A stretch of DNA of 64,000 bases, taken from Candidatus Parcubacteria bacterium (GTDB taxonomy: Bacteria > Patescibacteriota > Patescibacteriia > CAIXNZ01). The position numbers and the translations under genes are program-made. Shown one piece after another: positions 20,962-50,721 of the stretch; the first letter of the stretch is position 1, and each line of letters starts with the position of its first letter. The stretch spans positions 7,039 through 71,038 of the forward strand of contig JAPLYG010000012.1 of NCBI GenBank assembly GCA_026395685.1, read 5' to 3'. The notes below the pieces were generated by a model. The model saw only the letters and a program-made list of their open reading frames with translations, was not told the DNA's origin and did not search any database.

Positions 20962-20962
20962 C

Positions 20963-21049: not shown

Positions 21050-21454
21050 ATGAGAAAAATTTCCAGTAAGAAATACGCCCAGGCGTTATACGAATTGACC
21101 AATGATTTGTCCAAGGAACAGATTAAGCTTGAAATTGGAAATTTTATAAAACTTATTGCCAGAAATAAAGATTTAAATAAAATTGATAAAATATTTAAAG
21201 CTTTTGATGAATATGCCAAGAAACAGGAATCAATTGTAGATGTTTCTGTGGTTTCTGCTGAAATTTTGAGCCCAAGCCAAAAAGAAGATTTAAAGCAACA
21301 GATTAAAAAGGAACAAAAGGTTAAGACAGTTAATTTGCAGGAGCAGGTTGATAAAAGTTTGCTGGGCGGTTTTATTTTAAAAATAGGAGATACAATATTT
21401 GACGCCAGCTTAAAATCCAGATTAGCTAGTTTGCGTGCTGATTTGAAGAAATAA
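21050..21454 (+). CDS. atpH: F0F1 ATP synthase subunit delta (short form)
   Basis: SKKYAQALYEL N-terminus and C-terminal LLGGFILKIGDTIFDASL. Operon position. Confidence 0.7.
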   Translation: MRKISSKKYAQALYELTNDLSKEQIKLEIGNFIKLIARNKDLNKIDKIFKAFDEYAKKQESIVDVSVVSAEILSPSQKEDLKQQIKKEQKVKTVNLQEQVDKSLLGGFILKIGDTIFDASLKSRLASLRADLKK

Positions 21455-21631
21455 GGTTCTTAGAGAGAAGGTTCTAGAATTTTACTGTTAAGTGAATTGG
21501 TTAAGATGCTTGTAGGTGAGTAGTGTTGAGGTTAAGTTTAAAACACTAAACACTATCCACTTTCTACTTACGAGCATCCTAACCTTAACCTAAACACAAT
21601 TTTTATTATTAATTATTCATAATTTAAGAAT

Positions 21632-23164: not shown

Positions 23165-23281
23165 TTTTTAAGTTTTAATTTTTAAAAAATGATTTAATGT
23201 TTTAATTTCGAATTTAAACATTAAGTAATTAAAAATTGATTATAAATTAAAAATTATAAATTATTCATTTGAACGATTGTT

Positions 23282-24184: not shown

Positions 24185-24264
24185 ACTCGTCGGCCTTAAC
24201 ACTTTAGTGTTAAGGCGATGCACTCAAACACTAAAGTGTTTGAGCCGTAAATAAGGGTCAGGCA

Positions 24265-24318
24265 GCCATTACCGAGGAAATAGCTGAAATTGCCGGAGGT
24301 AAGGCCGCACTGGAATAA
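24265..24318 (+). repeat. Diverged duplicate of the last ~17 codons of atpG including the stop. It is separated from the original by a 76-bp palindrome-containing insert.
   Basis: GCCATTACCGAGGAAATAGCTGAAATTGCCGGAGGTAAGGCCGCACTGGAATAA versus GCGATCACCAAGGAAATAGCGGAAATTGCCGGAGGCAAGGCCGCACTCGAATAA at 24131-24184. Confidence 0.7.
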
Positions 24319-24366
24319 TTTAAAATTCAAAATGCAAAGTGCAATGTTACAAAGCAAAATGAATAA

Positions 24367-25779
<1,413 letters not shown>

Positions 25780-25828
25780 ATTTTTAATTTATAATTTTTA
25801 AACAATTTTTAATTTATAAATTTTAAAT

Positions 25829-26266
25829 ATGAAGATCACGATTTGTAGTTCTATTGAATTTACTCCTCAAATTAAAGAGGTATTAGATCAATTGTCCTCT
25901 TTGGGTCATATTGTTGAAATTCCCAAATATTCTCAAAAAATATTGAATGGGGATTTGACGTTAGAAGAATTTATGACAAAGAAGAGGAAGGAAGGTGATC
26001 TTGAATTTAGGAATAAGGCTGAAGAGGATTTAATTAAGCGATATTATCGTATCATAGATGAAAGTGATGCAATTTTAGTCCTTAATTTGGAGAAAAATGG
26101 TATCCAAAATTATATAGGCGGTAATACCTTCTTAGAAATGGGTTTTGCCTTTGTCTTGAATAAACAAATTTTTCTTTGGAACGATATTCCAAAAATGCAG
26201 TATAGTGATGAACTTATAGCAATGAAACCAACTATAATTAATCATGATTTGGGTAAAATCAAATAA
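25829..26266 (+). CDS. Nucleoside 2-deoxyribosyltransferase-like (NDT/PF05014-like Rossmann) protein inserted between atpD and atpC
   Basis: MKITICSSI start and a C-terminal GGNTFLEMGFAFVLNKQIF resembling the NDT block D.GT.FE.G.A.A.GKP. Confidence 0.45.
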   Translation: MKITICSSIEFTPQIKEVLDQLSSLGHIVEIPKYSQKILNGDLTLEEFMTKKRKEGDLEFRNKAEEDLIKRYYRIIDESDAILVLNLEKNGIQNYIGGNTFLEMGFAFVLNKQIFLWNDIPKMQYSDELIAMKPTIINHDLGKIK

Positions 26267-34286: not shown

Positions 34287-36752
34287 GTGATTTTTACCAA
34301 AATCAGCAATAGTAAGATTTGGCATATTTTTGGGGTTGGTATAATACTGATTAGTTTTATTTTTGGTCAGTTTTTTTATGCTTTAAATCTTTACGCCGCT
34401 ACCTTTGTAGAAATTTTTGAAGATACTGTTTACAAAGACGCTGCCAATACGACAGCTGACTGGGAATGGGATACTTCAAGCGCCCATTTAATAAACGGCG
34501 ATTGGCGCAAGGCAGACAATACTGACGATGAGGGTTCGTATGAAATAATTCAAACTGCAGTGATCGGACATTATAATGTTATTTCCGGACCTGATAATAA
34601 AGCGATAGTAATATATACGTCAAATAATATCCTTTATTCAATTAAATGGAATGATGCGGGAGAGTCTGTCTGTGGGGAAGGGATCACTGCATGCTGGACA
34701 AATATTGAGGGCACGGATATCTATCCGGATACACTTGGCACAATATCAGCTCTTAAATTGTCAGTAATTAAAAAATCTGACGGTTACCCAGCAGTGGCCA
34801 TAATTGCAAATGAAACACCGAAAAAATTATATTATGCTCAATATAGCCCGGGTGTCGGGTGGACAGCATCAGACGGTCAAACCCAAAGCTTTGAAATGAT
34901 TTCAGATGCCGCAGCAATTACAGAATATAAATCTTTTTCCTTTAAAGCAGATCAGTATGGCGAGCCCAGTATTGTGTGGTATGAAAAAACAGGGACAAGT
35001 CCGATTATAACAACTATTAAATATACCCGGCTGGATAATGGCGTCTGGAAACATGCTGATCGGACAACTTCTGGTAAGGAAACCATAGTTGTACGCAGTG
35101 GGACTGGATATACTGATTTTAATCCGGATTTTGATTATGTCGGCAGTAATATTTATTTTGCTGCCCAGATTATGAATATATCGTATAGCTCTTATGCCTG
35201 GAAATGGGATGGCGCAAATTGGGAAAATTTAGACGGGACTCATTTTGCTTCAGTGCCGGGAGGATTAGCAGATATCACTCTCTTACAAGCTACTTGTGCT
35301 AGGCCTAGTATTGCAATAAATTCATCAAATATTCCGTATGTAGCATGTACGACAGGTACATCCTCAATTAAAATTGCCCAAAGGCTAGATGGCGCCTGGA
35401 AATATCCTGACGGAATTACTGGCGGAGTTTTGTCTCTGGCCAATTTTACCTATAATATATTAATTGATATAGGCATTGATCGTGATGATAATCTGATGCT
35501 ATGGGAAGTTTCATATCCCACAACAACTACTGAAGCGGAAATATATTTTACCCAATGGAAAAGTGGCGCCTGGAAAAAATCCGACGGAGTTACAACCGGT
35601 TGGGAAGCGGCGAGTAATGTAACAAACGGCCAATTATTAAATGCCTATTATACAAATGATACTTCAACATTTGACCGGCCATATACGGTAGATGAAAATG
35701 GATATCCGATTTTTCTGTTTGTAAATAGCACCGGGACTCCCTCGCCTTATCCCGGATATGTTTCCCGTTATACAGGCAATGATATTAAGGGAGCTGATAA
35801 AACTTCAAATGATCAGGATACTGTTTTTCCTGATAGTAATTCGCAGATTTGGTATCCGGTAATATTTTTTGATTCTGAAACAAAAAATATTTTAGTACTG
35901 GGACAGAATATATCCCAAACCTTGCCTTTTTCAATGTTTAATAATAATGTTTACGATAATACTAATCAGGATTTAGTATCTTCAACAATTGCTACAGCTC
36001 ATAATAATTCAACAATTACCTCGGCCAAATTAACTGTCAGCGAAACAGAGCCTAGCAATACTGCTATTACTTATTATTTGAGTGCCGATGCTGGCAGCCA
36101 TTGGGAGGCAGTTACTCCCGGTGTCAGTCACGATTTTACCAATACTGGCACGGATTTACGCTGGAAAGCAAACTTGACTTCAAATAGCCAGGCAGCGACA
36201 CCCTCTCTTGATTATTTGTATATTGATGTGGACGGTAAAACAGCGGAAACTTCAGGCGATATCACCATCTCAGCCACTGTTGATCCGGAAATGTCTTTTA
36301 ACTTATCTGCCCAGACGTGTGATTTGGAATCTTTTTCCAGTACTGCCATAAAAACATGCAATTATTCCATAACAGTAAATACTAATGCAACCGGAGGTTA
36401 TGTTGCTTATCTTCGGTCTGTTGATGGTTTCAAAAGCGGTTCGAATGAATTAACGCCAGTTAGTGACGGTTTTGTGACTGTTGGGTCACAGGAGTATGGA
36501 GTTGCCACCAGCGATGCTGATTATGCTTCTTTGCAGATAAATAAACAGGTAACTGATTGTACTGCTTTAGATGACACCACCAGTCCGGTCAATGCTACTA
36601 GCCTTACTGCCAGCGATCAGTCATTTGCTAAAGAAGTTTTAGCGGTAGCTGATGAAGAAATAACTGTCTGCCACATAGCTTCGATTTCCGGCTCAACCCC
36701 AGCTGGCGTTTATTCTCAGATAGTCGTTATTACTCTTGTCAGTAATTATTAG
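34287..36752 (+). CDS. Large secreted/anchored surface protein (821 aa) carrying the cluster-specific C-terminal domain
   Basis: N-terminal signal/anchor. C-terminal ~170 aa is homologous to four downstream paralogs: VDPEMSFNL...C...CNY...NTNATGGYVAYLR...EYGVATS...CHIASISGSTPAGVYSQIVVITLVSNY. Confidence 0.6.
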   Translation: MIFTKISNSKIWHIFGVGIILISFIFGQFFYALNLYAATFVEIFEDTVYKDAANTTADWEWDTSSAHLINGDWRKADNTDDEGSYEIIQTAVIGHYNVISGPDNKAIVIYTSNNILYSIKWNDAGESVCGEGITACWTNIEGTDIYPDTLGTISALKLSVIKKSDGYPAVAIIANETPKKLYYAQYSPGVGWTASDGQTQSFEMISDAAAITEYKSFSFKADQYGEPSIVWYEKTGTSPIITTIKYTRLDNGVWKHADRTTSGKETIVVRSGTGYTDFNPDFDYVGSNIYFAAQIMNISYSSYAWKWDGANWENLDGTHFASVPGGLADITLLQATCARPSIAINSSNIPYVACTTGTSSIKIAQRLDGAWKYPDGITGGVLSLANFTYNILIDIGIDRDDNLMLWEVSYPTTTTEAEIYFTQWKSGAWKKSDGVTTGWEAASNVTNGQLLNAYYTNDTSTFDRPYTVDENGYPIFLFVNSTGTPSPYPGYVSRYTGNDIKGADKTSNDQDTVFPDSNSQIWYPVIFFDSETKNILVLGQNISQTLPFSMFNNNVYDNTNQDLVSSTIATAHNNSTITSAKLTVSETEPSNTAITYYLSADAGSHWEAVTPGVSHDFTNTGTDLRWKANLTSNSQAATPSLDYLYIDVDGKTAETSGDITISATVDPEMSFNLSAQTCDLESFSSTAIKTCNYSITVNTNATGGYVAYLRSVDGFKSGSNELTPVSDGFVTVGSQEYGVATSDADYASLQINKQVTDCTALDDTTSPVNATSLTASDQSFAKEVLAVADEEITVCHIASISGSTPAGVYSQIVVITLVSNY

Positions 36753-36801: not shown

Positions 36802-38148
36802 ATGAATAGGTGCCTTAAAAAAAATAAATTTTTTCTGAATATTTTAATCCTGATGGTTTTATTTTTATTGGGCAATTGTTATATTGTCAGAGCTGCTAGC
36901 TTGTTTAGTTTAAGCGATAGAGTCACCAGACATGCGCCCTTGACGCCTTCTGACCACGCGATTACTTTTACTACGCCAAGCGGTTTGGGCGAAGCAGGAG
37001 ATTATATCAGAATCAGTTTTGACGGCGGTTTTGATTTAAGCTCAATAATTTTTTCCGATATTAGTTTGTCTCACGGCCCAATTTCAGGCTTGGAAATTAC
37101 TGAAACAGTATCTGCTGCGCCTTTAGCCACTAACTGGGGATTGACCATTTCCGGCAACCATCTTGATTTAATCCATCCTACTAATTCAGCTAATGGTGAT
37201 ATTGCGCCCAATGATATTATATATATTAAAGTCGGCGGGACTCATAAGATAATTAATCCGGCAACTATCGGCTCTAAAGTTATTTCTTTAGTAATTTATA
37301 ACAGTTCCAATATAATAATTGACAGCGGACGTCTGGCAATACCTGTTACCCAGGATCAGGTAGGTGTTGGCGGCGCACCATTTGGAACTTTACCCATACC
37401 CGTGACTTTGAATTTTCCTTATAGTGTCACCACAAATTCCCTGGATCTTGATTGGACTGAATATGTAGAATTATTGATTCCAAATCCGCAATTTGACCGA
37501 TATGAATTATATATGGGTACCAGCCCCGGAGTCACAAATTTAAACGGGATATTACTGCCCCCAGATCCTCCAAGCGATGCCTATGACATTACCAAAACGA
37601 TTTTTTCCATTGATGGCTTAGCGCCTAACCGCACTTATTATTTTGTAGTCTATGTTTATAATGACCTTGGCTATTATGCTGCTTCAAATGAAGTTTATGC
37701 TACTACGCAAAGTGGCGGTATAATTTGGCCGTCTTTGCCCGCAGCTCCTACTATAAATTCCAGAATTTGCCCTATTTTTTTGCCAAATACCGCAATTGAC
37801 GGCACTAAACCGGCAGGGACTGCGATTTATGTAAACGGCAGTACTCAGAATATAAATTACCCCACTGATTTATTATGGAATAAGCTGGTAAATCTGGGCT
37901 TGGGTACAAATTTATTTTTGATATATGCACAGGACAATTATGGGCAAAACAGCAGTATGCTGACTGCGACTGTAAATCGCTGCGAAGTAGGTGATACAAA
38001 TTGCAATTTATTGGTTGATGATTTTGATCTGGCAGGCTTGGCCGGACATTGGGAGACCAACTGGTGTTATGCTGATTTCAATGAAGACGGTATTGTTGAT
38101 GATTTTGATCTGTCAGGTCTAGCTGCACATTGGGATTCGGTGTATTGA
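36802..38148 (+). CDS. Secreted protein with a dockerin-like C-terminal pair of Ca-binding repeats
   Basis: Signal peptide. C-terminal CEVGDTNCNLLVDDFDLAGLAGHW...DFNEDGIVDDFDLSGLAAHW matches the dockerin DxNxDGxVDxxDL duplicated pattern. Confidence 0.5.
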   Translation: MNRCLKKNKFFLNILILMVLFLLGNCYIVRAASLFSLSDRVTRHAPLTPSDHAITFTTPSGLGEAGDYIRISFDGGFDLSSIIFSDISLSHGPISGLEITETVSAAPLATNWGLTISGNHLDLIHPTNSANGDIAPNDIIYIKVGGTHKIINPATIGSKVISLVIYNSSNIIIDSGRLAIPVTQDQVGVGGAPFGTLPIPVTLNFPYSVTTNSLDLDWTEYVELLIPNPQFDRYELYMGTSPGVTNLNGILLPPDPPSDAYDITKTIFSIDGLAPNRTYYFVVYVYNDLGYYAASNEVYATTQSGGIIWPSLPAAPTINSRICPIFLPNTAIDGTKPAGTAIYVNGSTQNINYPTDLLWNKLVNLGLGTNLFLIYAQDNYGQNSSMLTATVNRCEVGDTNCNLLVDDFDLAGLAGHWETNWCYADFNEDGIVDDFDLSGLAAHWDSVY

Positions 38149-38264: not shown

Positions 38265-40583
38265 TTGCTTCTTACTTCTTATTTCAAATTTAATAATATG
38301 AACAAGCTATCCAAAATTATTTTATTCTTATTATTGCTGGGGTTATTTTTGCCTTATTTGCCGGCTCAGGCAGCAGGAAATGCGATTTTTCGCCTGACCA
38401 GCGCCAAAACTGACTATTATGTCGGTGAAAATATTTATATTGATGTTATGGTTGAACCAAATGGCGAAAGCATTAATACCGTAAGATTAATTTCGGATTT
38501 TACAGGCGCCGATGTTTTAAATGTCTCTGATTTTAATTTGGGGACTGCATGGCCGACTCAAAGTCCCGGCAGGGAATTAAATAATACGACTGATCATATA
38601 AATGTCGGCGGATTTATTTTAGTTGAATCAATAAATGTAAATTCAAAATTTGGCACTTTAATTTTTAAGGCAAATCAGATTGGTACGTCCACAATTTCTG
38701 TGGCAACAGGTTCGCATTTGATTTCTCCGGATCAGATTGAAAGGTTAAATATCTTTGCTAGTCAAAATATCACCATCAATGTAATCGGTAATCCGCCTTT
38801 GCCGCCACCCCCACCACCGGCAAATCATGCTCCTGTTTTTTCTGCCATTGCTAATAAACAGATTAATTTGGGAGAAACTATTACTTTTCCAGTTTCAGCC
38901 ACTGATTCAGACAACGATTTGATAAATTTAAGCTGGACTATACCTAGTAGCGCAAATTTTAATAATGTAATCAATGATTCTGCTGCAGTCAGCGGTAATT
39001 TTTCCTGGACGCCTGCTTCGCAGGGTATATATACGGTAACTTTTACAGCTACTGACAATAATGTTGATGCCAAAACTTCAGTTTTGACTGTAGGTATTGG
39101 CGTCAATGTGCCTGCTCCTGCTCAAAATCATGCCCCTGTTTTCGAGCCAATCTTGGAAAAAACAGTCAATGCCGGTGAAATTTTAACTTTTACTGTTTCA
39201 GCTACTGATCCTGATGGCGATAATGTGACTTTGAGTTTGGAGCCATTAGAAACTGCCTCTTTAACTCCCATAACCTCGGGTATAACTTCTTCTTCACGTT
39301 TTAGCTGGACGCCTAAAAATTTTGGAATATATTATTTAGTTTTTAAAGCCAAGGATGATAATGCCGCTAGCCAGGAAAGCACGCAAACAGTGCGTATTAC
39401 AGTTTTTGGCGGTCAATGTCCTCCCTGTAGCAGCGGTGGCGGCGGTGGAGGCGCAACCTGTCCCATTCCCCAGTGTGAAAAACAGGATTTTAAAAAGCCT
39501 ATAAATAAGACTTTACCGGTTATTACTTCACCAACGCATCCCAGCCAGGAAATTTGGTATAGTAAAAATACGCCGCAATTTGTCTGGGAAGTTGCCGAAG
39601 AAAACTTAGGTTATGTTTTTAATATAGATCAAAATCCGCTTTCTGATCCGGCTATCGGCTATTTCTTTTCTCAGGATAAGGTTTTTTCTTTCAGCCAGGT
39701 AGCTGACGGCTTTTGGTATTTTCATTTAAAAGTAAAATACTCAGACGGCTATGGTCCGACTGCTCATTATCAGGTAAAAATTGACACCACGGCTCCGGAA
39801 TTTTTTCTGCCCAGTATAGAAGGCACTAAGCTATATTTTTCCGCTATAGATAAGCATTCTGGTCTAGCTTATTTTGAAATGAAGACTGATGACGGCAAAT
39901 GGCAAAAAATTCAGAGTCCATACACATTTACCAGCGAGGACCAAAATGCCAAGGTTATGACTTTGCGGGCTGTGGATAACAGCGGCAATGCGATTGAAGC
40001 CAGAATTGATTTGCCTAAAATGGAATTAATCAAGGAAGAACCCAAAAAGTATATTTTAAATCAGCCGAAATTTATAATAGAGCCGCTTATAATTGATAAA
40101 ATTGACTTTCCGGTGATTCGTGGCCGAGCCATGCCGAGCGCCAAAGTATTTTTATTCATTTCAACTGAGCCCCAAACAATAATTTATACCCTGGCTGATT
40201 ATCAGGGTAATTGGGTCGCTTATGCGGATAAAGAATTAGCGCCGGCGAAATATAGCATTTACGGCATTGCTAACTTAAATTTTACTGACTCTCCTCCTTC
40301 GGAAAAAGTTTATTTCAGCATCACTAAAGAACAGCAAAAGTTTATTTTTCACTGGTCATCTACGTGGCCTTGGTGGATATTAATGCTTTTGGTGATAATT
40401 TCCGGCGCCGTTGCCATTTACTTGTTATTAAAAGTAAAAAAATATTATTTAACAAAAAGAATTTTTCGCAAGGCATATAAAATAGGCAAGCATGACGGTA
40501 AAATTATAGAAAAAATAAATGAAATCAAACAACAAAAAAATCAGCTCAAAAAAATTGCTGCCAAGAGTAAAAACAGGCGTTAA
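38265..40583 (+). CDS. Membrane-anchored surface protein with two cadherin-like (He_PIG-type) repeats
   Basis: Signal peptide. Poly-Pro linker (PLPPPPPPA), then NHAPVF...TFPVSATDSDND and NHAPVFEP...TFTVSATDPDGDNVTLS repeats. A Cys/Gly-rich segment (CPPCSSGGGGGGATCPIPQCE) follows. C-terminal TM plus Lys-rich tail. Confidence 0.55.
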   Translation: MLLTSYFKFNNMNKLSKIILFLLLLGLFLPYLPAQAAGNAIFRLTSAKTDYYVGENIYIDVMVEPNGESINTVRLISDFTGADVLNVSDFNLGTAWPTQSPGRELNNTTDHINVGGFILVESINVNSKFGTLIFKANQIGTSTISVATGSHLISPDQIERLNIFASQNITINVIGNPPLPPPPPPANHAPVFSAIANKQINLGETITFPVSATDSDNDLINLSWTIPSSANFNNVINDSAAVSGNFSWTPASQGIYTVTFTATDNNVDAKTSVLTVGIGVNVPAPAQNHAPVFEPILEKTVNAGEILTFTVSATDPDGDNVTLSLEPLETASLTPITSGITSSSRFSWTPKNFGIYYLVFKAKDDNAASQESTQTVRITVFGGQCPPCSSGGGGGGATCPIPQCEKQDFKKPINKTLPVITSPTHPSQEIWYSKNTPQFVWEVAEENLGYVFNIDQNPLSDPAIGYFFSQDKVFSFSQVADGFWYFHLKVKYSDGYGPTAHYQVKIDTTAPEFFLPSIEGTKLYFSAIDKHSGLAYFEMKTDDGKWQKIQSPYTFTSEDQNAKVMTLRAVDNSGNAIEARIDLPKMELIKEEPKKYILNQPKFIIEPLIIDKIDFPVIRGRAMPSAKVFLFISTEPQTIIYTLADYQGNWVAYADKELAPAKYSIYGIANLNFTDSPPSEKVYFSITKEQQKFIFHWSSTWPWWILMLLVIISGAVAIYLLLKVKKYYLTKRIFRKAYKIGKHDGKIIEKINEIKQQKNQLKKIAAKSKNRR

Positions 40584-41268
40584 AATTTTGGTTTTAGCAA
40601 TTGTATTAACATTGTCTAAGGAAACCATTGCCGGCATGGCCAGTGATAATTATCGGATTTGGGTGGATACTTTTGATGCTGCAGGCGGAGCAACCAATAC
40701 TAGTGGTTTTAAGATCAATTCAAATTTATCTGATTTTAATGCTACGCAAAGTCAAAGCTCTAATTTTAGCCAAAAAATAGCTTTTTCTGGCATTTTGGAT
40801 GAGCCTACAGTCGGCTTTAACGTACAATCCGTAACCTTGGATTTTGGTCTTCTGTCAACCAATTCAACAAAATATGCTGTCCATACTTTTTCTGCGTTTA
40901 CCAATGCCCAAGAAGGCTATACAATTAAAATTTATGGCGATCCTTTGAAATCAAATGATTATATAATTCAGGAAATAGGCACTACAGCTTCGGCACCGAC
41001 TTTAGGCACTGAGCAATTTGGTATTAATTTAATGTTAAACAGCACTCCTTCAGCAGGCGCAAATCCTACCGGCGGCATTGGCCAGGCAGCAGTCAATTAC
41101 AACCAGGCTAATAAGTTTGCTTATCATGCCGGTGAAACTATTGCTTATGCTGAAAGCTATTCTTATCAAACCGATTATACCGTCACTGCAATTGTAAATA
41201 TTGCCGATGACACGCCGGCGGGAGCTTATACTACAATCTTGACTTATGAATTTATTCCGGTCTTTTGA
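40519..41268 (+). CDS. Small secreted paralog carrying the cluster C-terminal domain
   Basis: Ends DDTPAGAYTTILTYEFIPVF and carries the shared domain. Start is uncertain (overlaps the upstream gene; an alternative ATG lies at 40638). Confidence 0.45.
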   Translation: MKSNNKKISSKKLLPRVKTGVKILVLAIVLTLSKETIAGMASDNYRIWVDTFDAAGGATNTSGFKINSNLSDFNATQSQSSNFSQKIAFSGILDEPTVGFNVQSVTLDFGLLSTNSTKYAVHTFSAFTNAQEGYTIKIYGDPLKSNDYIIQEIGTTASAPTLGTEQFGINLMLNSTPSAGANPTGGIGQAAVNYNQANKFAYHAGETIAYAESYSYQTDYTVTAIVNIADDTPAGAYTTILTYEFIPVF

Positions 41269-41474: not shown

Positions 41475-42578
41475 ATGAACAAATTCTTGAAAGTTGTAGG
41501 TATCTGGTCAATAGTTGCCATTGTATTTTCAATGAGCTTATTGGCTCCCATGCAAACTCAAGCTGCCGGCCAGCTGGGGTTGATTTCTGTTTTGCTAAAA
41601 GCAACAGACAGTGAAACAGGCAATAATGTATATGCAGTTAGCAGCCAGGTGCCATATACTTTTGTTAAATTTACGCCTATTGCCGATTTAGAGATTGATG
41701 ACGGTATTAAAGTTACTTTTACAAGCTTTACTGATTCGGTAGAAACTGCTGATGTGACTGTAACTCAAAATGCTGAAAGTTTAACTAAGACTGTTGTTGC
41801 TTCAGGGGGAAGTGGTGTCATACAAATTGAAATGGACTCGGCGACTACTGGCTCAAAAGTTAGTCCTGTTACTGTAAAAATCACCGGCGATGCAACAGAT
41901 TTAGTTACTCCGGGAAGTGCAAATACTTACACTGTTAACATTGAGGTTTATGATTTAGGAGCGGATGCTCATTTCGGTGGCGGTGATGATGTCTTACAGG
42001 ATAGCGGTGCGGCCGGTGTTATTATAGGCACTGCTGCTGGTTATCAAATCGGTATTACAGGTACAGTTGATCCGACTTTATCTATGGCTTTGACTCAGAT
42101 CGGCAATGATACTCCTACTTCAACCTGCGCTTTGGGAACTCTTACCAAAGATTTTGTAGAAACCTGCGGTTATGATGCTAAGATTTCTACCAATGCTACC
42201 GGCGGCTATACAGCGTATATCAGGGCAGGGGGCGGATTAATGAGCGGTGCTAATGAAATTGACAAAGTAGCTGAAGGAGATGATATTGATTTCGGAGTCG
42301 AAGAATATGGAATATCATCAAGTGATACAGGTACTGATATAATCAATAATAACTCGGGAACAAGTTGCACTCTTTTAGATCACACTACTACGCCAGCGAT
42401 GCCCGCAGATCCATTGACTAATGGCGGTGGTTTATATGTAGATAGATCATTTGCTTCTTCTACAGGCACGGCTTCTAATGAAAGGACAACAGTCTGTCAT
42501 GCAGCTGGTATTACAGCTGTTACTCCGGCAGGCAATTATACCCAGACTGTAACTATCACTATTGTCGGCAATTTTTAA
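41475..42578 (+). CDS. Secreted paralog with the cluster C-terminal domain
   Basis: VDPTLSMAL...C...CGY...STNATGGYTAYIR...EYGISSS...CHAAGITAVTPAGNYTQTVTITIVGNF. Confidence 0.6.
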   Translation: MNKFLKVVGIWSIVAIVFSMSLLAPMQTQAAGQLGLISVLLKATDSETGNNVYAVSSQVPYTFVKFTPIADLEIDDGIKVTFTSFTDSVETADVTVTQNAESLTKTVVASGGSGVIQIEMDSATTGSKVSPVTVKITGDATDLVTPGSANTYTVNIEVYDLGADAHFGGGDDVLQDSGAAGVIIGTAAGYQIGITGTVDPTLSMALTQIGNDTPTSTCALGTLTKDFVETCGYDAKISTNATGGYTAYIRAGGGLMSGANEIDKVAEGDDIDFGVEEYGISSSDTGTDIINNNSGTSCTLLDHTTTPAMPADPLTNGGGLYVDRSFASSTGTASNERTTVCHAAGITAVTPAGNYTQTVTITIVGNF

Positions 42579-42620: not shown

Positions 42621-43619
42621 ATGAAAACAAAAAAATTTTTATTGCTGGCTGTAGTAATGCTGATTTGCGGATTAGCAATTCCTTTTGCCAGTAATGCCGT
42701 TACTGTTTCACCTCCAATTTTGGAGATTGAAGCAGCTAAAGGCCAGGTAATAACACAGTCAATTAAAGTTCGCAATGAAAGTTCTGATTTGGTTACTTAT
42801 TATTTGACATCTCAAAAATTTATTGCCGCCGGTGAAGGCGGAGCGCCGCAATTTGTGGAAGGAAAAGTGGAAGATGTTGACCTGGCATCCTGGATCAAGT
42901 TCCAGTATGACAGTATTAGTATCCCAGGCGGTCAGACAGTAGAAGTGCCTTTTACTATTGTTGTTCCTGAATTTGCCGGTCCGGGTGGTCATTATGCAGC
43001 TATATTTTTAAGCACTTTTCCGCCAGATGCAAAAGCTAATACTTCTCAAGTATCTATTGCCAGCAGAATCGGCACTTTGGTGCTCGTCAAAATTGCAGGC
43101 GAAGTGAAAGAATCAGCTGAATTATCAGAGTTTACAGCTGCTAAATCATATTCTTCCTTACCGGTAACTTTTGGAATCAGAGTAAAAAACATAGGTAATG
43201 TTCACGTGAAGCCAGTAGGATCAATCGTTATTAAGAATATGTTCGGTTCAGTCGCCGGCAATGTGATAGTCAATGAAGAAAGCGGAAACGTTTTGCCGGA
43301 TTCAATCAGAAAGTATGAAGCAAGCTGGGTGAAAAATCCAAATGCAGTCGGGGCTACGACATTCTGGGGAAAATATCGGGAAGAAAAGGAAAATTATGCT
43401 TTTGGCAAATATACCGCTGATTTAATGCTTTCTTATGGCACTGCAGGTAAACCTTTGCAGGCATCTGTAAGTTTCTTGGTCATTCCTTGGCATGTAATCT
43501 TAGTCAATTTGGTACTGATCATCATCGTTGTTATTATAATTTACTTATTAGTCAAGAGATATAATGCCTGGTTGATTACTAAATACGGCAAAAAACAAGA
43601 AAAGAAAGCTAAGAAATAA
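42621..43619 (+). CDS. CscA/DUF916-like surface protein (signal peptide, Ig-like beta-sandwich, C-terminal TM anchor with a basic tail)
   Basis: VTVSPPILEIEAAKGQVITQSIKVRNESSDLVTYYL (chaperone/DUF916-like N-domain pattern). C-terminal VILVNLVLIIIVVIIIYLLVKRYNAWLITKYGKKQEKKAKK. Confidence 0.45.
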   Translation: MKTKKFLLLAVVMLICGLAIPFASNAVTVSPPILEIEAAKGQVITQSIKVRNESSDLVTYYLTSQKFIAAGEGGAPQFVEGKVEDVDLASWIKFQYDSISIPGGQTVEVPFTIVVPEFAGPGGHYAAIFLSTFPPDAKANTSQVSIASRIGTLVLVKIAGEVKESAELSEFTAAKSYSSLPVTFGIRVKNIGNVHVKPVGSIVIKNMFGSVAGNVIVNEESGNVLPDSIRKYEASWVKNPNAVGATTFWGKYREEKENYAFGKYTADLMLSYGTAGKPLQASVSFLVIPWHVILVNLVLIIIVVIIIYLLVKRYNAWLITKYGKKQEKKAKK

Positions 43620-43734: not shown

Positions 43735-44145
43735 ATGAAAAAAATAATTAACATTATAATAGTGGCTGTTTTTTTGAATTTTTTTATGCTTTCTTTTGGC
43801 TATGGTCAGCAAAATGGGGTTGGTGTCGTGGGCATCGTGCCGGAAACTGATTTAAATAAAAATGTAAGACAGCTGGATGTGCAAACACCAGAAAATAGAC
43901 CAATTTTTAAGGAAAATAAATATTTATATTTTTTTGAAAAAGCACTGGGTTTAAGCCAGGAGACTGTAACAGATTCAGGAATGAATATAGAAACAAGGCA
44001 GACTGCCTATGACCAAACAGCAAGCAAATTGCTGCTCTGGGGCTTGCTTTTGATTATGGCGGTTCTGATTTGGATTATATTGAGCATTATAGATAGATTT
44101 ATTTTCAAACAGCAAAAGCATTATAAACATGCTCATGGATTGTAA
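43735..44145 (+). CDS. Small membrane protein (signal peptide + C-terminal TM)
   Basis: Hydrophobic termini. Lies within the surface cluster. Confidence 0.4.
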   Translation: MKKIINIIIVAVFLNFFMLSFGYGQQNGVGVVGIVPETDLNKNVRQLDVQTPENRPIFKENKYLYFFEKALGLSQETVTDSGMNIETRQTAYDQTASKLLLWGLLLIMAVLIWIILSIIDRFIFKQQKHYKHAHGL

Positions 44146-44190: not shown

Positions 44191-45225
44191 ATGAAAAAAA
44201 AACATCAACATAATATAATCATTCTCGTATGTATTTTATTGTCAGCTTTTCTTTTCCATCAGGCAAATGCAGGTCTGGTCAGTAATTTTAGTGACCAGTT
44301 AAGCAGGCTGGCAATCTCCACTAGCTCAAATCATACGCTTAATTTTACCATTTCATCTGATTTTTCCGCGGGAAAAACTCTGGAGCTGTATTTTGAATCC
44401 GGTTTTGATTTGAGTGATATTGATTATACTGACATAGATTTTAAGGATGACGGTGAAAATAAGAATTTGGGTGAAACTCCCGGAAACGGCGTCGGCAGTA
44501 ATATTGGTATTTCTGTTTCGGGCCAGACTATTATTTTTATTCAAAATGACACTGATTCTATTTCTGCGTCATCAGTCATAACCATTTTAATCGGCTTAAA
44601 TGCCAATCATCAGTTGCTAGGCACCATGCAGATGATTAATCCTGATCTGGGGGGAATATATAAAATCAGTTTAGCTGGCAATTTCGGCGATATGGGGACA
44701 ATCTCAGTACAGATTTTAAGTACTGACGGCGTCGGATTAAATGCTTCTATTGAGCCGGCAATGTCATTTAGCATCAGGAATTCTGAAGATTCGGAAAATT
44801 TTAGCGGTTGCAGTTTTAATAATCCATCAATCAGTTCTGTCAGTGAATGCAGCTTCAGGTTGGCAGCAGAAACTAATGTTTCTTCTGGTTTTCAGGTATG
44901 GTTACGTTCCGACGGAGATTTGCGCAATATTAACGGTACAATCGCCAAAGTTATTGAAGACCAGGAAATTACTGCCGGCAATGAGGCATTTGGACTGGCT
45001 TTACAATCCGGAACAGGTATAAATGAAGCAGGCGATTTTACTGACGATGAAACCCCAGTTTCATCCACAGATTCACTTTTAATTTATACAAATTCAGTGT
45101 ATAATTATATACAGGGGGAGTTATCCACAACCTCTATAATTACACTTAAATTAGCGATTTCACATACTACCAAGGCAGGTCATTACAGTCAAGCGTTTAT
45201 TTTTACATTATTGCCAAATTATTAA
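44191..45225 (+). CDS. Secreted paralog with the cluster C-terminal domain (divergent)
   Basis: IEPAMSFSIR...C...C...SSGFQVWLRSDG...EAFGLALQ...TKAGHYSQAFIFTLLPNY. Confidence 0.5.
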   Translation: MKKKHQHNIIILVCILLSAFLFHQANAGLVSNFSDQLSRLAISTSSNHTLNFTISSDFSAGKTLELYFESGFDLSDIDYTDIDFKDDGENKNLGETPGNGVGSNIGISVSGQTIIFIQNDTDSISASSVITILIGLNANHQLLGTMQMINPDLGGIYKISLAGNFGDMGTISVQILSTDGVGLNASIEPAMSFSIRNSEDSENFSGCSFNNPSISSVSECSFRLAAETNVSSGFQVWLRSDGDLRNINGTIAKVIEDQEITAGNEAFGLALQSGTGINEAGDFTDDETPVSSTDSLLIYTNSVYNYIQGELSTTSIITLKLAISHTTKAGHYSQAFIFTLLPNY

Positions 45226-45263: not shown

Positions 45264-47060
45264 ATGATAAAAAATAAACAAAAATTTTTGGCGCTGTTCG
45301 TAGTTTTAGTTTTGCTAAGTTCATTTTTGGGTTCTGTCCCAAAGCAGGCACAAGCTGCCAGTCTCATTTCTCACTGGGAGTTTAATGGCAGTACGGCAGA
45401 TTCAGCAGGTACAAATAACGGGACATTGGAGGGCAGTGCTAGTGTAGCAAATAATTATTTAGATGTTGTTAGTTCAACTGCTGATTATGTTTCAGTCCCT
45501 GATGATGACAGCTTGAGTTTTGTATCCGGAGGAGTTGACCAGGCATTTTCAGTTTCCACTTGGGCAAAGCTGGATCCGGCAGGCAGCTTGTCTTTTCTCA
45601 AGAAAGGAAATATTGATGATTCAAATTTAGAATATCAATTTTCTTATAATTATTTGGGTAATGTGGAGCTTCTACTTTATGATGATAGTCATACTCCTGG
45701 TAATTATATAAGTATTCAATATGCTTTGGGGAATGATTACACAATGGACTACTTGAGTGAACACTGGATGCTTTTAACAGCTACTTATGACGGAGGAGGA
45801 GCAAGTGCCGTACTTAATTTATATGTCAATGGTTCTGTGGTAGATGCATTTAGCAGCGGAAGTAATTATGATAAAATGGCAAATGGAAATGGAATTCTGA
45901 AAATTGGTTCTGCGTCAGATGGAAATATTGATGATTTGAGAATTTATTCCGGAGAATTAACTGCTAATGAGGTGAGCACGCTTTTTTCCAGCCAGGCAAG
46001 TGACTTTCGCAGCACTTCAATTGCGACGCAGTTTTTGGATGCAGATGGCAACAATGTAGTAGCAGTTAGTACACCTGTAAACACTGCAAAAGTAATATTT
46101 TCTCCTCAAAATGAATTAAATAATAGTGATGGAGTTTTAATTAATTTCCAGTCAGATTTTGCTTTAGGCACTATTGATGACAGTTCAGTTGCGATAAGTC
46201 AGATGCATACAACAACTGATCTTACAGTTGAAACAGACGGTATAGACAAAAGCGGGCAAAATGTCAGGATAATTCTTGATGATACGGCCGGCGCTGGTGA
46301 TCGCAAGTCAGAACAGGTTACAGTTACGATTACTGACGCCATAACTACGCCGAGTGCTGGTACGTACATCATTATAGCTGAAACTTATGATTTGGGCAGT
46401 GATAATGCCTGGGGTGGGGTAGGAGGAGCGGCTGATACTTTAGAAGGTACAGCTTCAGCAGCAGCTTTTTTTGGTGATTATATAGTCAATATTAGCGGTT
46501 CAGTTGATCCGACATTAACCCTGACTTTGGCCAATTGGACTGATGCTAATGGTGATGTTGCTACCGCAAATACCTGTAATTTAAGTCCAGCTGCAAGATC
46601 TTTAACAAGCGCTGCGATTAATTTGTGCGGATATACTGCTAGCATATCTACAAATGCAACTTCCGGTTATATTGCCTATATTCGTGATAGCGGAGATTTT
46701 TCTTCCGGCAGTGATGTTTTGGCAGATGCGACAGGAACAGCTTCAATGAGCGCAAATCCAGCGGATGCTATTTATGGTGTGGCAACTGATTTTGCAGGTG
46801 GCGGCGTAGCCATTCAGTTTATAAATGATGTAGACGGTGATACTTTTAGAAATACGGGTGATCTTTATGCTATTATAACGAATGGTAATCGCTCCGGAGT
46901 CAATGCTAGTGGTATTACCGAAACTGATCAAAGCTTTGCCAAAAGCACTGAACCTGCGGATGATACTATTGTTTTAGGCCATATGGCAGCCATTGCCGGT
47001 GATACTCCGGCTGGAACATATAGTACGACTACTGTGATTACAGCCGTGGGAAATTTTTAA
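45264..47060 (+). CDS. Secreted protein: N-terminal LamG-like (Laminin_G_3) domain plus the cluster C-terminal domain
   Basis: LamG hallmark IDDLRIYSGELTANEVSTLF. C-terminal VDPTLTLTL...C...CGY...STNATSGYIAYIR...TPAGTYSTTTVITAVGNF. Confidence 0.6.
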   Translation: MIKNKQKFLALFVVLVLLSSFLGSVPKQAQAASLISHWEFNGSTADSAGTNNGTLEGSASVANNYLDVVSSTADYVSVPDDDSLSFVSGGVDQAFSVSTWAKLDPAGSLSFLKKGNIDDSNLEYQFSYNYLGNVELLLYDDSHTPGNYISIQYALGNDYTMDYLSEHWMLLTATYDGGGASAVLNLYVNGSVVDAFSSGSNYDKMANGNGILKIGSASDGNIDDLRIYSGELTANEVSTLFSSQASDFRSTSIATQFLDADGNNVVAVSTPVNTAKVIFSPQNELNNSDGVLINFQSDFALGTIDDSSVAISQMHTTTDLTVETDGIDKSGQNVRIILDDTAGAGDRKSEQVTVTITDAITTPSAGTYIIIAETYDLGSDNAWGGVGGAADTLEGTASAAAFFGDYIVNISGSVDPTLTLTLANWTDANGDVATANTCNLSPAARSLTSAAINLCGYTASISTNATSGYIAYIRDSGDFSSGSDVLADATGTASMSANPADAIYGVATDFAGGGVAIQFINDVDGDTFRNTGDLYAIITNGNRSGVNASGITETDQSFAKSTEPADDTIVLGHMAAIAGDTPAGTYSTTTVITAVGNF

Positions 47061-47208: not shown

Positions 47209-50200
47209 ATGAAAAAGGCTAATTCTAAGACAATTATAGTAAAAGTTTCGTTTTGGCAGAAAATCAAGGGAGTATTAGTCCAGATGAAAAATCCTTGGGC
47301 TATTTTTGGTATTATTTTGGCTATTGGGGTGATTACTGCTGTTATAATTATATTTTGGTATTCTAATTATAAAGATTATATCATTGCAGGCGATGGTATT
47401 CGCGATACCATGACTTATCAGGGTAAATTAGTCAATGCTGATGGCGTTCCGCCTCCGGATGGTGATTATAGCCTGCAGTTTAAAATTTATGATTCATTAA
47501 CCAACGGTAATTTACTTTGGACTGAAATTTGGGATGGGGATGTTCACGTTGAACAGCCAGGTGCTTTGAAGGTTTCTGTCAGCGATGGAGTTTTTACCGT
47601 GGAATTAAATTCATTATGCGAAAGCTGGGCAGGTGATTGCGCTGAAACAGTTGATTATGGCGGGGGTAAGGTAATTACAGGTGTGACTTTTGATCAGGAC
47701 AGCTATTATTTACAGGTTGAACTTGATTATGCTGATGACGGTACTTTTGAGGAAATATTTTCACCGCGTAAAAGGTTTACTGCCACGCCTTATTCAATGA
47801 ACGCTGATAAACTTGACGGTAAAGATTCTACTGATTTTGTGGCCAAATCAGGCGGCGCAAATGCGCTTATGACCGGCAGTTTAACCACCACCAATGTTAT
47901 TGACAGCTCTTTGGTGACATATCAGCAGTTTGGTGAAACGGAGATTATTAGTGATACAGCCTATACCCATGATAGTGGCCCGAATAATTTGTCTGTAAAA
48001 TTGGTGAGTTCATATATTAGCGATGGCTACTTAGGTTTTAGAGGCAATCCTGAATATGCCCAAATAGATGATAATGATTTGCTGAGTTTTGGCACTGGCA
48101 GTGCTGATACGCCCTTTACTATTTCCGCCTGGGTTTTGGGCGCGGATATGAAAGATTTCATTATTGCCAGCAAGGGCATATATAACACCAGCGGTGAATA
48201 CAAATTTTTTATTGATGATAATTATAAATTGAGCGCACAGCTTTTTGACGAGAGTGTTGCCAATGCATATATCGGCCGAATGTATAATGCATCTTCCTTG
48301 GAAGGATTGGCAAATAGCTGGAACCATTTTGTCTTTACATATAATGGCAATGGCCAATCATCAGGCATAAAATTATATATTAACGGTGATCGTGTGGATG
48401 ATGAAAATAAACAAAATGGATCATATGTAGCCATGGAAACTTTGTCAGCTAATTTGATTATAGGACGTTATGATACTACATATTCTTTGGGTAAGATAGA
48501 TGATTATATGATTTATAGCCGGGAATTATCATTTGATGAAATTTTAAATTTATATAATGGGGTCCAGAATAAAGTTAATAAAAATAATTATAAGCTTAGT
48601 ACCTATTATCTTTCTTTGGATGGTTTAGCCAATGGTGTTTTTGATTCTGCAAATTTATATTATGATCCCAATTTCCAGCAGATTGTTTTTGATAGAAAAA
48701 TCTTTGTGCCGGATAATAAATCAGCAGCTGAAAATGAAAAAAATGACCGCGACTATACGCATTTTACAGATGCCAATAGAATATTAGCCTATGATTTTAG
48801 CATGCCAAATTCAGGCATATTGAATTTGGATGATATAACCGGCAATACTGACGGTAATAATGGGGGAGATACTACTTTTATCAATAATGGATTAGTGGGC
48901 TATGGCTATGCTTTGAATGCGGATGGAAGTTACATCAGCTTTAATGATCCCGGTATTAATACAACGACCGGTACTATAGAACTTTGGAGTAAATTAAATA
49001 ATATCTCCACTTCGGAAACAAATTATTTTGTTTACATGAGTGATACCGGCGGTGTTCAGCTGGCTTTTTGGAAACAGGATGCCGTCAATTTATATGTTAA
49101 GGTCGGTGATGCCACTGCAGTAGATACAACTTATGATTTTGTCGATAATAATTGGCATCATTTGGCTTTAACTTGGTCAGCAGGCGCTTATAAAGTATTT
49201 GTTGATGGTACGGCTGTTTATAATGCGGCTTATTCGACTTTAACGACCCCAACATCGTTATTTTTGGGTTATGGGAATATAGCCAGTACGTCATTAAATG
49301 GCAGTATGGACAGCGTGGCCATTTATAATGATGTCTTGACTGATGATGAAATTTTAAATCATGCTAAAAATGGCTTTTCAGGATTATATATTGATAATAC
49401 TTTAAACGACGGTGTAATCAGTACTAGTTTGGCAAACTTATTGGATAAATCATTCGGGGAAACTTTTGGCAATAAATTTGATCCATGTTATTTTCAATAT
49501 ACAGGACCCAAGAAATTATCTTTACCATTTTCTGAAGGTTATGGCTCTACAACTACCAGCGTTTCAAATAGTCAAGTAGCTACTCTTCATGGTTCTTCCT
49601 GGGTAAACAAAGGCTATAATGGCTCTGCTTTAAGTTTTGACGGGATAGATGATTATTTGGAAATGGAAGATAATTATGACTTAAATATTGATGTTTATGA
49701 TTTTGCCATTGAATTTTGGTTTAAAGGCAACGGCGTTTCAAATGCCGGCAAAAAAATAATTTCTAAGCGTTCGGGTGACACAGGATATGAGGTCTCTTTT
49801 GGCCCCGCAAAAGATAGCATAATATTTTTTCTTGGCGATGGCACTAATACTGTTACAGCGGTAGCTAATGGACCAAATAACATGTCTAGTGGGTCTTGGA
49901 ATCATGTCTTGATAAGTTTTGACCGCAGTGGCAATGCGGTAATGTATATCAATGCCTGGTCACAAGTAACAACTGATATTTCCTCATTAGACAGCTATAG
50001 CTTGAGCAATAGTGCTCCTTTATTCATCGGTAAAGATTCAACAGGAAATTATTTTAACGGAATATTGGATGGCGTAATTATTTATCATCTTTATGATGAT
50101 GGACAATCAGAAGCGCTTCCACAATTTAATATTTATGATTCTTACGCCCGTGTTTTTAATGCACCTGATATTCTGCTCCTTTTGGGAAGAAACTTGTCTA

Positions 50201-50721
50201 ATGCGACAGCACCGCTTGTCTCCATAAATCAATCCAAAATTGGGGATGCCGGAATTTTTGCCATGAATCATGAAGCTAATACAACTGGTTATCCGGTTGC
50301 TTTATGGAATGATAATTCCTATGATTCAGGTGGGAATAATATATACAATTTAATATATTTCGGCACTACCTCGATTAGTGGGGGCGGTAGTTCTTTAGAA
50401 TATGGCAATATAAAGTGGGACAGTACTAACAGCAGATTAGTCTTTAGCGACGGTATTCATCAGGCAAGCAGCAGCGATACAAATATTTTTGAAGGCATGA
50501 CCGCTATTGGTTCAACGACAACGCCCACCGAAATGCTGGAAGTAACTGGAAATATTACAGCCACAGGCACTATCCAAAGCGACCAGCCAAGCGTAATCAA
50601 AGTTAGCGGCGGCTCAACGCCCGGTTCTTCTTGCACGGTAGGGGATTTTACTTGGGATAATGATTATCTTTATATTTGTACAGCTACTGATACCTGGGAA
50701 ACGGCAGCAATTGCGCCTTGA
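47209..50721 (+). CDS. Giant (1170 aa) membrane-anchored protein with several LamG-like (concanavalin-type) domains
   Basis: N-terminal signal-anchor. Repeated LamG endings IDDYMIYSRELSFDEILNLY, MDSVAIYNDVLTDDEILNH and ILDGVIIYH. Confidence 0.6.
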   Translation: MKKANSKTIIVKVSFWQKIKGVLVQMKNPWAIFGIILAIGVITAVIIIFWYSNYKDYIIAGDGIRDTMTYQGKLVNADGVPPPDGDYSLQFKIYDSLTNGNLLWTEIWDGDVHVEQPGALKVSVSDGVFTVELNSLCESWAGDCAETVDYGGGKVITGVTFDQDSYYLQVELDYADDGTFEEIFSPRKRFTATPYSMNADKLDGKDSTDFVAKSGGANALMTGSLTTTNVIDSSLVTYQQFGETEIISDTAYTHDSGPNNLSVKLVSSYISDGYLGFRGNPEYAQIDDNDLLSFGTGSADTPFTISAWVLGADMKDFIIASKGIYNTSGEYKFFIDDNYKLSAQLFDESVANAYIGRMYNASSLEGLANSWNHFVFTYNGNGQSSGIKLYINGDRVDDENKQNGSYVAMETLSANLIIGRYDTTYSLGKIDDYMIYSRELSFDEILNLYNGVQNKVNKNNYKLSTYYLSLDGLANGVFDSANLYYDPNFQQIVFDRKIFVPDNKSAAENEKNDRDYTHFTDANRILAYDFSMPNSGILNLDDITGNTDGNNGGDTTFINNGLVGYGYALNADGSYISFNDPGINTTTGTIELWSKLNNISTSETNYFVYMSDTGGVQLAFWKQDAVNLYVKVGDATAVDTTYDFVDNNWHHLALTWSAGAYKVFVDGTAVYNAAYSTLTTPTSLFLGYGNIASTSLNGSMDSVAIYNDVLTDDEILNHAKNGFSGLYIDNTLNDGVISTSLANLLDKSFGETFGNKFDPCYFQYTGPKKLSLPFSEGYGSTTTSVSNSQVATLHGSSWVNKGYNGSALSFDGIDDYLEMEDNYDLNIDVYDFAIEFWFKGNGVSNAGKKIISKRSGDTGYEVSFGPAKDSIIFFLGDGTNTVTAVANGPNNMSSGSWNHVLISFDRSGNAVMYINAWSQVTTDISSLDSYSLSNSAPLFIGKDSTGNYFNGILDGVIIYHLYDDGQSEALPQFNIYDSYARVFNAPDILLLLGRNLSNATAPLVSINQSKIGDAGIFAMNHEANTTGYPVALWNDNSYDSGGNNIYNLIYFGTTSISGGGSSLEYGNIKWDSTNSRLVFSDGIHQASSSDTNIFEGMTAIGSTTTPTEMLEVTGNITATGTIQSDQPSVIKVSGGSTPGSSCTVGDFTWDNDYLYICTATDTWETAAIAP

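Follow-up and report, generated by a model that had tools for sequence, protein, structure and literature searches.

Gene Cluster and Shared C-Terminal Domain

The stretch analyzed here, hereafter the window, comprises 64,000 nucleotides of the genome of a Candidatus Parcubacteria bacterium (assembly GCA_026395685.1, contig JAPLYG010000012.1, positions 7,039 to 71,038) and contains, between 34.3 and 47.1 kb, a gene cluster encoding five proteins that carry a common domain of about 170 amino acids (aa) at their extreme C-terminus. These proteins, products of + strand open reading frames (ORFs) and numbered P1 to P5 in gene order, are probably subunits of a Pam-type pilus of this bacterium, which belongs to the candidate phyla radiation (CPR). 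P1 (34287-36752, +, 821 aa) carries the domain within a hidden Markov model (HMM) envelope that, linker included, covers 36216-36749, with a candidate linker strand at 36261-36308. The corresponding envelopes, also including the linker, are located at 40714-41265 in P2 (40519-41268, +, 249 aa), where a linker-like segment occupies 40780-40827, and at 41985-42575 in P3 (41475-42578, +, 367 aa), with the linker strand at 42048-42095. In P4 (44191-45225, +, 344 aa) the envelope covers 44671-45222 and the linker strand 44731-44778, and in P5 (45264-47060, +, 598 aa) they cover 46425-47057 and 46485-46532, respectively. A six-frame scan found exactly these five copies in the window and no sixth.

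An earlier interpretation of the same DNA made without database searches (the sequence-only reading) had described a domain in five copies, at coordinates close to the HMM envelopes given above, and had proposed a multiple alignment of the five C-termini. This alignment, computed with MAFFT, showed that the similarity is positional, with 10 invariant columns and 23-43% identity to P1, and it agrees with BLASTP and with a profile search that the repeated domain is real. BLASTP comparisons with SEG filtering and composition correction gave E values of 7e-37 (P1-P3), 1e-27 (P1-P5), 3e-19 (P3-P5), 5e-12 (P1-P4), 2e-11 (P3-P4), and 2e-4 (P1-P2), while a profile built exclusively from relatives outside the window scored all five proteins (4e-57 to 1e-18), including P4 (8e-39) and P5 (6e-41). 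The sequence-only reading had itself named the finding that would overturn it, namely a merely compositional resemblance of Thr/Ser-rich low-complexity segments. The serine plus threonine content of the copies is indeed moderately high (21-26%), but the positional alignment with its conserved columns, the corrected BLASTP values down to 7e-37, the scoring of all five proteins by a profile from unrelated genomes, and the 1534 relatives described below refute this explanation altogether. The copies of P2 and P4 are clearly more divergent than those of P1, P3, and P5, the domain of P4 ending in TKAGHY...LLPNY; several of the conserved blocks that had been listed are restricted to P1, P3, and P5. 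The two conserved cysteines proposed for the domain need a similar adjustment, as paired cysteines are present but their number varies: P1 and P3 have four each, P4 and P5 have two, and P2 lacks them.

The distribution of the domain beyond the window was assessed with a profile of the five sequences, which was run exhaustively in HMMER against representatives at 50% clustering and yielded 1534 cluster representatives at E <= 1e-3 (524 at E <= 1e-10). The family also occurs in many CPR lineages, and the domain is not specific to this cluster, contrary to the sequence-only reading. Word-indexed searches were less sensitive: the P3 domain alone retrieved nothing, P3 itself included, and an alignment query returned chiefly PamT-like proteins. 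The family proteins range from 117 to 1604 aa, contain two or four cysteines per domain, and present conserved Cys, Gly, Pro, and aromatic columns. The family consensus reads VtITAtVDPtLsF.L..ntCdLGTLS...v.TCsY...VsTNAtnGY..yI..DG.L in its N-terminal half and GtEeYG ... C ... vCHaAaIsg.TPAG.YsQtVTyTVvGNF in its C-terminal half. The N-terminal parts of the relatives are varied, comprising LamG, BNR/beta-propeller, Kelch, FG-GAP, beta-helix, and dockerin modules, and because of this variety the idea of one common module beneath diversified N-termini holds.

Probable Assignment to the Pam Pilus System

Pam pili, surface filaments of ultrasmall CPR bacteria, have been described from Ca. Mycosynbacter amalyticus, where they were resolved by cryogenic electron microscopy (cryo-EM) and are built from the pilins PamA and PamB, which carry paired cysteines; PamE and PamT are further pilins of the system (10.64898/2026.03.03.709456). 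In PamA and PamB, an N-terminal domain folded as a nine-strand beta-sandwich is joined by one linker strand to a truncated immunoglobulin-like (Ig-like) C-terminal domain, the latter taking up the linker strand of the next pilin by donor-strand exchange (10.64898/2026.03.03.709456). The pam operon further encodes PamC and PamD, PapD/FimC-like chaperones with C-terminal transmembrane (TM) helices, the single-domain protein PamT, reported to be devoid of a linker strand, and PamR, a fibronectin type III (FnIII) and TM protein (10.64898/2026.03.03.709456). That preprint focuses on Saccharimonadia and Microgenomatia and never mentions Parcubacteria (10.64898/2026.03.03.709456).

Pfam holds no model for the shared C-terminal domain. 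The NCBIfam model NF058581 ('CPR_Pam_pilin_C, Pam pilus system pilin subunit'; curated cut-off 55 bits) matches P2 with 128.7 bits, the only one of the five scores above the cut-off, and matches P1 (E 4.5e-09, 36.6 bits), P3 (E 8e-11), and P4 (E 9.7e-07) significantly but below it. P5 gave no direct match to this model and is linked to the family through P3, to which it corresponds with an added LamG domain (E 2e-31 over 350 aa). The same model is matched by 85 of 93 relatives at E <= 0.001, and the match starts directly after the VDPxLSF block, which thus occupies the position of the PamA/PamB linker strand in the preprint. Since only one of five subunits exceeds the NCBIfam cut-off, loci of this kind may be under-annotated.

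P2, identical to NCBI protein NTZ49_03370, is a single-domain member of PamT-like type, in which a short N-terminal region precedes the Pam C-terminal domain; it matches the PamT model NF058579 over its full length (E 2e-45, 155 bits, under the equivalog cut-off of 240), and the PamT-like family aligns with the C-terminal-domain family in hhalign (98.4%, E 7e-15). Its segment EPTVGFNV, which is homologous to the linker strand, follows a stretch of about 50 aa with repeated S-x-N-Y/F motifs. P3 is a two-domain pilin of PamB-like size, with an N-terminal domain, linker strand, and C-terminal domain, and P4 is another two-domain pilin with a different type of N-terminal domain. Two sequence types of N-terminal domain were distinguished, one shared by P3 and P5 and the other by P4 and a 448-aa protein of the cluster described below. 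P5 combines a concanavalin-like LamG domain (Laminin_G_3, E 9e-13) with a P3-like N-terminal domain, the linker, and the C-terminal domain, and is a lectin-bearing pilin. P1 starts with a hydrophobic signal-like segment, followed by an N-terminal region of about 620 aa (no Pfam match and no family assigned), the linker, and the C-terminal domain, making it a candidate adhesin-bearing pilin. The domain is already known from the NCBIfam model and the 2026 preprint, and the locus is a divergent Parcubacteria example with five pilins, in which the C-terminal domain most likely serves, together with its candidate donor strand, as the subunit-joining (polymerization) module of Pam pili.

Predicted Fold and Candidate Donor Strand

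The AlphaFold2 model of P3 reached a predicted local distance difference test (pLDDT) score of about 90 over the linker and the C-terminal domain. A Foldseek search of this domain against the PDB retrieved mostly chaperone-usher pilins, with CfaB first (E 1.2e-3), followed by CsuA/B, CS20, PapA, FimA, and the pilin domain of PapG. The beta-sandwich suggested by the sequence-only reading is thus borne out as an Ig-like module whose fold matches are pilins, and the C-terminal domain is predicted to have the truncated Ig-like fold of pilins. The terminal strand of alternating hydrophobicity is best read as the last (F) strand, which would line the donor-strand groove.

In the search of the PDB with the family profile, the top sequence match, and the sole informative one, was the CfaB donor strand fused to CfaE ('ITVTASVDPVIDL'). 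The matched peptide 'EKNITVTASVDPVIDL' sits at the end of CfaE chain 2hb0 and corresponds to residues 1-20 of mature CfaB and likewise of the major subunit of CS17; this peptide is the class 5 fimbrial donor strand, which the 2hb0 construct carries as a cis fusion. The block VtItAtVDPtLsF upstream of the Pam domain resembles this N-terminal donor strand of class 5 major pilins (CfaB VEKNITVTASVDPVIDL). When 141 Pam linker and domain sequences were compared with seven class 5 major pilins in hhalign, the alignment (P 3.9e-4, probability 35%) was collinear and included the donor strand and the TN strand as well as the AGxYxGxV strand at the C-terminus. Its score of 29.8 was not reached by any of 100 column shuffles (mean 11.6) or by any of 100 block shuffles, whose mean was 19.4 and whose maximum was 28.7. 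These results provide a moderate hint, at the level of sequence, that the Pam C-terminal domain and the class 5 pilins may have a common ancestry, and they support the VDP block as a candidate donor strand.

Predicted Membrane-Anchored Chaperone and Its Homology to WxLIP

The cluster encodes a single chaperone-like protein of 332 aa (42621..43619, +), the only copy in the window, composed of a signal-like segment, two Ig-like domains, and a C-terminal TM helix (aa 281-319). Its AlphaFold2 model (pLDDT 90.5) presents two beta-domains followed by a long C-terminal helix (290-331). In Foldseek, this protein matched Enterococcus faecium WxLIP first (9i25_C, 9i1y; E ~4e-12), then RbmA, and subsequently the chaperones CfaA, CsuC, DraB, Caf1M, and FimC; 9i25_C is WxLIP bound to a long WxL protein. 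No PapD match was obtained in Pfam, and the likeness to chaperone-usher chaperones is one of fold only. In the model, a low-confidence loop (aa 131-150) between the conserved strands GGHYAAIF and IGTLVLV appears to be placed like the F1-G1 loop of PapD-type chaperones. The 332-aa protein is accordingly described here as a predicted membrane-anchored two-domain Ig-like chaperone that would play the role of PamC/PamD.

The chaperone family was aligned with WxLIP by hhalign at 97.2% (E 4.4e-11 over 221 columns), PF06030 matched 35 of 80 chaperone homologues, and a sequence match to the PDB entry of EfmWxLIP1 was found (E 0.007). The chaperone family is clearly homologous to the WxLIP proteins (DUF916-DUF3324-TM) of Firmicutes, a link that concerns the chaperone alone. 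This homology is a result new to us, and the Pam preprint makes no mention of WxL (10.64898/2026.03.03.709456). The WxL domain itself (PF13731) was absent from the 93 + 49 members of the Pam-domain family searched with Pfam, and no WxL chain occurred among the fold matches listed by Foldseek. A relationship of the WxL domain with the Pam C-terminal domain was rejected on sequence, as 17 and 7 of 60 block shuffles, respectively, scored higher than the two hhalign comparisons (P 0.18 and 0.021).

Homology of the 332-aa protein to WxLIP, with 9i25_C as its best structural match, also speaks for a WxL-like surface display, in which the domain proteins would be held at the cell surface as adhesins, one to one by strand insertion in a WxLIP-like anchor, with no polymerization. 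The layout of the locus, which mirrors that of WxL clusters, is in line with this. However, the domain matches the Pam pilin model, PamA and PamB form filaments in cryo-EM (10.64898/2026.03.03.709456), a conserved donor-like strand is kept in all five proteins, and the sequence comparisons with the WxL domain revealed no similarity. Tethered display hence appears unlikely as the explanation of the domain, and polymerization and display may both be true for different subunits.

The sequence-only reading had proposed an anchoring module used for wall or partner binding. A non-covalent peptidoglycan-binding anchor, as suggested there and as classically described for WxL proteins, would suit a domain placed C-terminally under variable N-terminal parts, and the family of its partner is annotated as 'WxL Interacting Protein, peptidoglycan binding domain'. 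Nevertheless, no wall-binding family (WxL, LysM, SLH, and others) was matched in Pfam or NCBIfam, the predicted fold is nearest to donor-strand pilins, the NCBIfam model is named after a pilus subunit, and the Pam C-terminal domain is a subunit interface of the filament (10.64898/2026.03.03.709456), which together render a wall anchor very improbable. The wall-binding part of the proposal is not supported, NF058581 being named for the Pam pilin C-terminal domain, a strand acceptor in cryo-EM filaments. Partner binding remains in a narrow sense, the partner being a strand of the neighboring subunit or of the chaperone.

Other Genes of the Cluster and Its Neighborhood

Two further proteins of the cluster are candidate base, terminator, or anchor components. 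The 448-aa protein (36802..38148, +) comprises a signal-like segment, an N-terminal domain like that of P4 (E 7e-12), an fn3 domain (E 1.2e-05), and a dockerin-like C-terminal tail (Dockerin_1, 18 bits, and 23.9 bits in the orthologue of the syntenic contig L001 described below); it carries neither the Pam C-terminal domain nor a TM helix. This composition makes it a candidate base or terminator subunit. The segment PIPVTLNF of this protein was considered as a donor strand and rejected, being located at the start of the fn3 match. The 772-aa surface protein (38265..40583, +) has a signal-like segment, Big_9/PKD Ig-like domains, and a C-terminal TM helix (aa 700-726), and could anchor the system in the membrane. 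Together with the 448-aa protein, it may replace PamR as an anchor split over two polypeptides. Pfam gave no support for a cohesin-like N-terminus in the 772-aa protein that would serve as a partner for the dockerin-like tail.

A small protein of 136 aa (43735..44145, +), with hydrophobic segments at its N- and C-terminus, gave no Pfam or NCBIfam family match and occupies the same position in the syntenic L001 locus. Downstream of P5, the 1170-aa fiber-like surface protein (47209..50721, +) combines three LamG domains with an N-terminal TM segment and a Bdello_MAT_N-like N-terminus that resembles the 'mosaic adhesive trimer' fiber family of Bdellovibrio. A 'tail fibre-like protein' and ATP synthase genes have been reported as conserved neighbors of pam genes (10.64898/2026.03.03.709456). 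The 1170-aa protein, associated with the pilus locus by position only, may be this 'tail fibre-like' neighbor, and an F-type ATP synthase operon (20428-26266; b, delta, alpha, gamma, and beta subunits in Pfam) lies about 8 kb upstream of the cluster. A 145-aa ORF after the beta subunit, at the expected position of epsilon, had no Pfam match.

Among the cluster ORFs scanned with Pfam and NCBIfam, no usher family and no sortase family were matched, and an LPXTG protein was absent. The ends of P1-P5 (...GNF/NY/PVF) present no LPXTG motif, hydrophobic tail, or charged end.

Synteny, Divergence, and Distribution

A Joint Genome Institute (JGI) contig, L001 (3681-20281), has the same gene order as the window between 34287 and 47060. 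The identity between both loci was 88% for the flanking UvrD-like helicase, 70% for the 448-aa protein, 69% for the 772-aa protein, 65% for P2, 70% for the chaperone, 58% for P4, and 45% for the 136-aa protein, whereas for P1, P3, and P5 it was just 27-35% and confined to the C-terminal domain. With these three proteins at 27-35% against 58-70% for the core, the shaft and adhesin pilins evolve far faster than the core, and P1, P3, and P5 can be described from their sequences as hypervariable pilins. A gene with a 23S_rRNA_IVP Pfam match was observed at 11014-11382 of L001, where it separates the PamT-like gene from the following pilin gene, and is absent from the window.

To describe the distribution, the chaperone alignment was scanned against GTDB species representatives and 79 loci of other CPR genomes were examined. 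Chaperone homologues were detected in Falkow-, Uhr-, Buchanan-, Kerfeld-, Staskawicz-, Nomura-, and Doudnabacteria, Minisyncoccales, Paceibacterota, and others, and at least one ORF ending in the domain was located within 10 kb of the chaperone in 75 of the 79 loci. All 145 such ORFs lie on the same strand as the chaperone; most loci carry one or two of them, and the window five. Several contigs (L013, L021, L026, L048, and others) contain a CPR-type chaperone/pilin cluster under the titles 'uncultured Gammaproteobacteria', 'Pirellulales', or 'Methylomirabilis', labels that are probably wrong or the result of mis-binning.

The terminal position of the domain is nearly constant. Its end is exactly the protein C-terminus in 202 of 206 relatives and coincides with the stop codon in 142 of the 145 ORFs near chaperones. 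Of 141 relatives, 124 end in F and 14 in Y, which makes the final residue aromatic in 138. Such a position would also be expected of a C-terminal sorting or secretion signal, of the type IX secretion system C-terminal domain or outer-membrane beta-signal type, which a dedicated export or attachment system would recognize and remove. However, CPR bacteria possess a single membrane and no outer membrane, no sorting-machinery family was found among the cluster ORFs scanned, and the domain is large (150-180 aa). In chaperone-usher pilins the free C-terminal carboxylate is part of chaperone recognition, which explains the terminal position equally well. Moreover, the C-terminal domain of PamA and PamB is kept in the mature filament (10.64898/2026.03.03.709456), and a sorting signal is hardly credible.

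Proposed Assembly of the Pilus

For a Pam-type pilus, the following assembly can be proposed. Each of P1-P5 would be exported by Sec, and its last ~150 aa would form an incomplete Ig-like pilin domain with a groove beside the C-terminal strand TPAGxYxQxVTxTVxGNF-COOH. The 332-aa membrane-anchored chaperone would cap this groove first, and the chaperone strand would then be displaced by the linker strand of the next subunit through donor-strand exchange, the linker or donor strand corresponding to the conserved block just upstream of the domain, V-x-I-T-A-x-V-D-P-x-L-S-F-x-L. The outcome would be a linear filament for which neither an usher nor an outer membrane is required. P2 would participate as the PamT-like single-domain member of the pilus, and the variable N-terminal parts, such as the LamG domain of P5 and the ~620 aa of P1, would be shown along the filament or at its end as candidate host- or ligand-binding modules. 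Polymerization at this locus, the order of subunits, and host binding are thus suggested by analogy with the preprint and with chaperone-usher biology, while the NCBIfam match, the pilin-like predicted fold, the fold and helix of the chaperone, and the gene linkage were computed here.

Several observations weigh against this assignment. Four of the five copies fall below the NF058581 cut-off or have no direct match to it, the copies are connected to PamA and PamB through profile and transitive homology, and no Pam entry appeared among the PDB sequence matches of the family profiles or the listed structural matches. The linker-like segment of P2 is at odds with the linker-less PamT of the preprint, and the window encodes one chaperone compared with two (PamC, PamD) in M. 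amalyticus. The architecture of PamR, with RbmA-like tandem FnIII domains, an N-terminal strand, and a C-terminal TM helix, was found in no single ORF. Finally, the N-terminal domain of P3, a putative nine-strand sandwich, was modeled with a pLDDT below 50, because the alignment has no depth there. Weighing these points with the evidence above, we consider it likely that P1-P5 are subunits of a Pam-type pilus.

Wider Significance

CPR bacteria are thought to live attached to host cells, and only a small number of their surface structures are known. The locus extends the Pam machinery to a Parcubacteria-type genome, with five subunits and lectin-like heads, and the fast change of the pilins (27-35% identity as against 88% for the helicase) would fit a pressure related to host specificity. 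Pam pili were recognized only in 2026, from a single cultivated Saccharibacteria relative (10.64898/2026.03.03.709456); the locus widens this very new system, whose core finding is already contained in NCBIfam and the preprint.

The homology between the chaperone and WxLIP offers a concrete handle on the origin of usher-free donor-strand systems, the class 5 motif being a weaker lead. It raises the idea that the Pam pili of CPR bacteria, the WxL/WxLIP clusters of Firmicutes, and the class 5/archaic chaperone-usher fimbriae of Proteobacteria could have arisen from one ancient strand-complementation system, whose chaperone would have stayed anchored to the membrane in single-membrane lineages, an usher never having been necessary there. 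The half of this idea that concerns the chaperone is supported by the strong WxLIP homology and the half linking the pilins with class 5 by a modest hint, whereas sequence comparison gives no support for a connection of the WxL domain with the C-terminal domain of Pam pilins, and a common origin of the three systems seems rather doubtful at present. If it were true, donor-strand complementation may likewise serve to assemble or hold the WxL proteins described as 'peptidoglycan-binding', and the chaperone-usher pathway would have a single-membrane ancestor or sister.

Comparison with Known Systems

Other surface systems resemble the cluster to different degrees. Of the traits of sortase-assembled Gram-positive pili, the C-terminal LPXTG signal is absent from the five proteins, and no sortase was matched by the cluster ORFs scanned. 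TasA of Bacillus and the archaeal bundling pili AbpA gave lower scores than chaperone-usher pilins, no camelysin/TasA family match was obtained, and we know of no dedicated chaperone of this type for TasA/AbpA fibers.

The WxL/WxLIP (Csc) clusters of Firmicutes encode a partner that is homologous to the 332-aa protein across both Ig-like domains and also similar in its TM-helix end, and they follow the same logic, combining a small protein that consists of the domain only, large proteins that carry it C-terminally, and a partner with two Ig-like domains and a TM helix. Unlike the Pam pilins, WxL proteins have been described as peptidoglycan binders and not as filaments, and neither an LPXTG protein nor a sortase gene was found at this locus.

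Chaperone-usher systems (class 5 CFA/I and CS1; archaic Csu) provide the closest structural match to the Pam-type pilin-domain fold, and class 5 shows a similar N-terminal donor-strand motif (ITVTASVDPVIDL compared with VtItAtVDPtLsF). They differ in that the pilins described here bear an extra N-terminal domain before the donor strand, the chaperone is membrane-anchored whereas theirs is soluble and periplasmic, and the sequence similarity is marginal.

In comparison with the Pam pili of M. amalyticus, the locus differs in its Parcubacteria-type lineage, its five domain-ending proteins, and its larger N-terminal additions (LamG, and ~620 aa in P1). It shares with them the layout of N-terminal domain, candidate linker strand, and C-terminal domain, the PamT-like member, the paired cysteines, the membrane-anchored chaperone with two Ig-like domains, the Sec-type N-termini of all parts, the CPR host, and the presence of an ATP synthase operon and a fiber-like protein in the vicinity.

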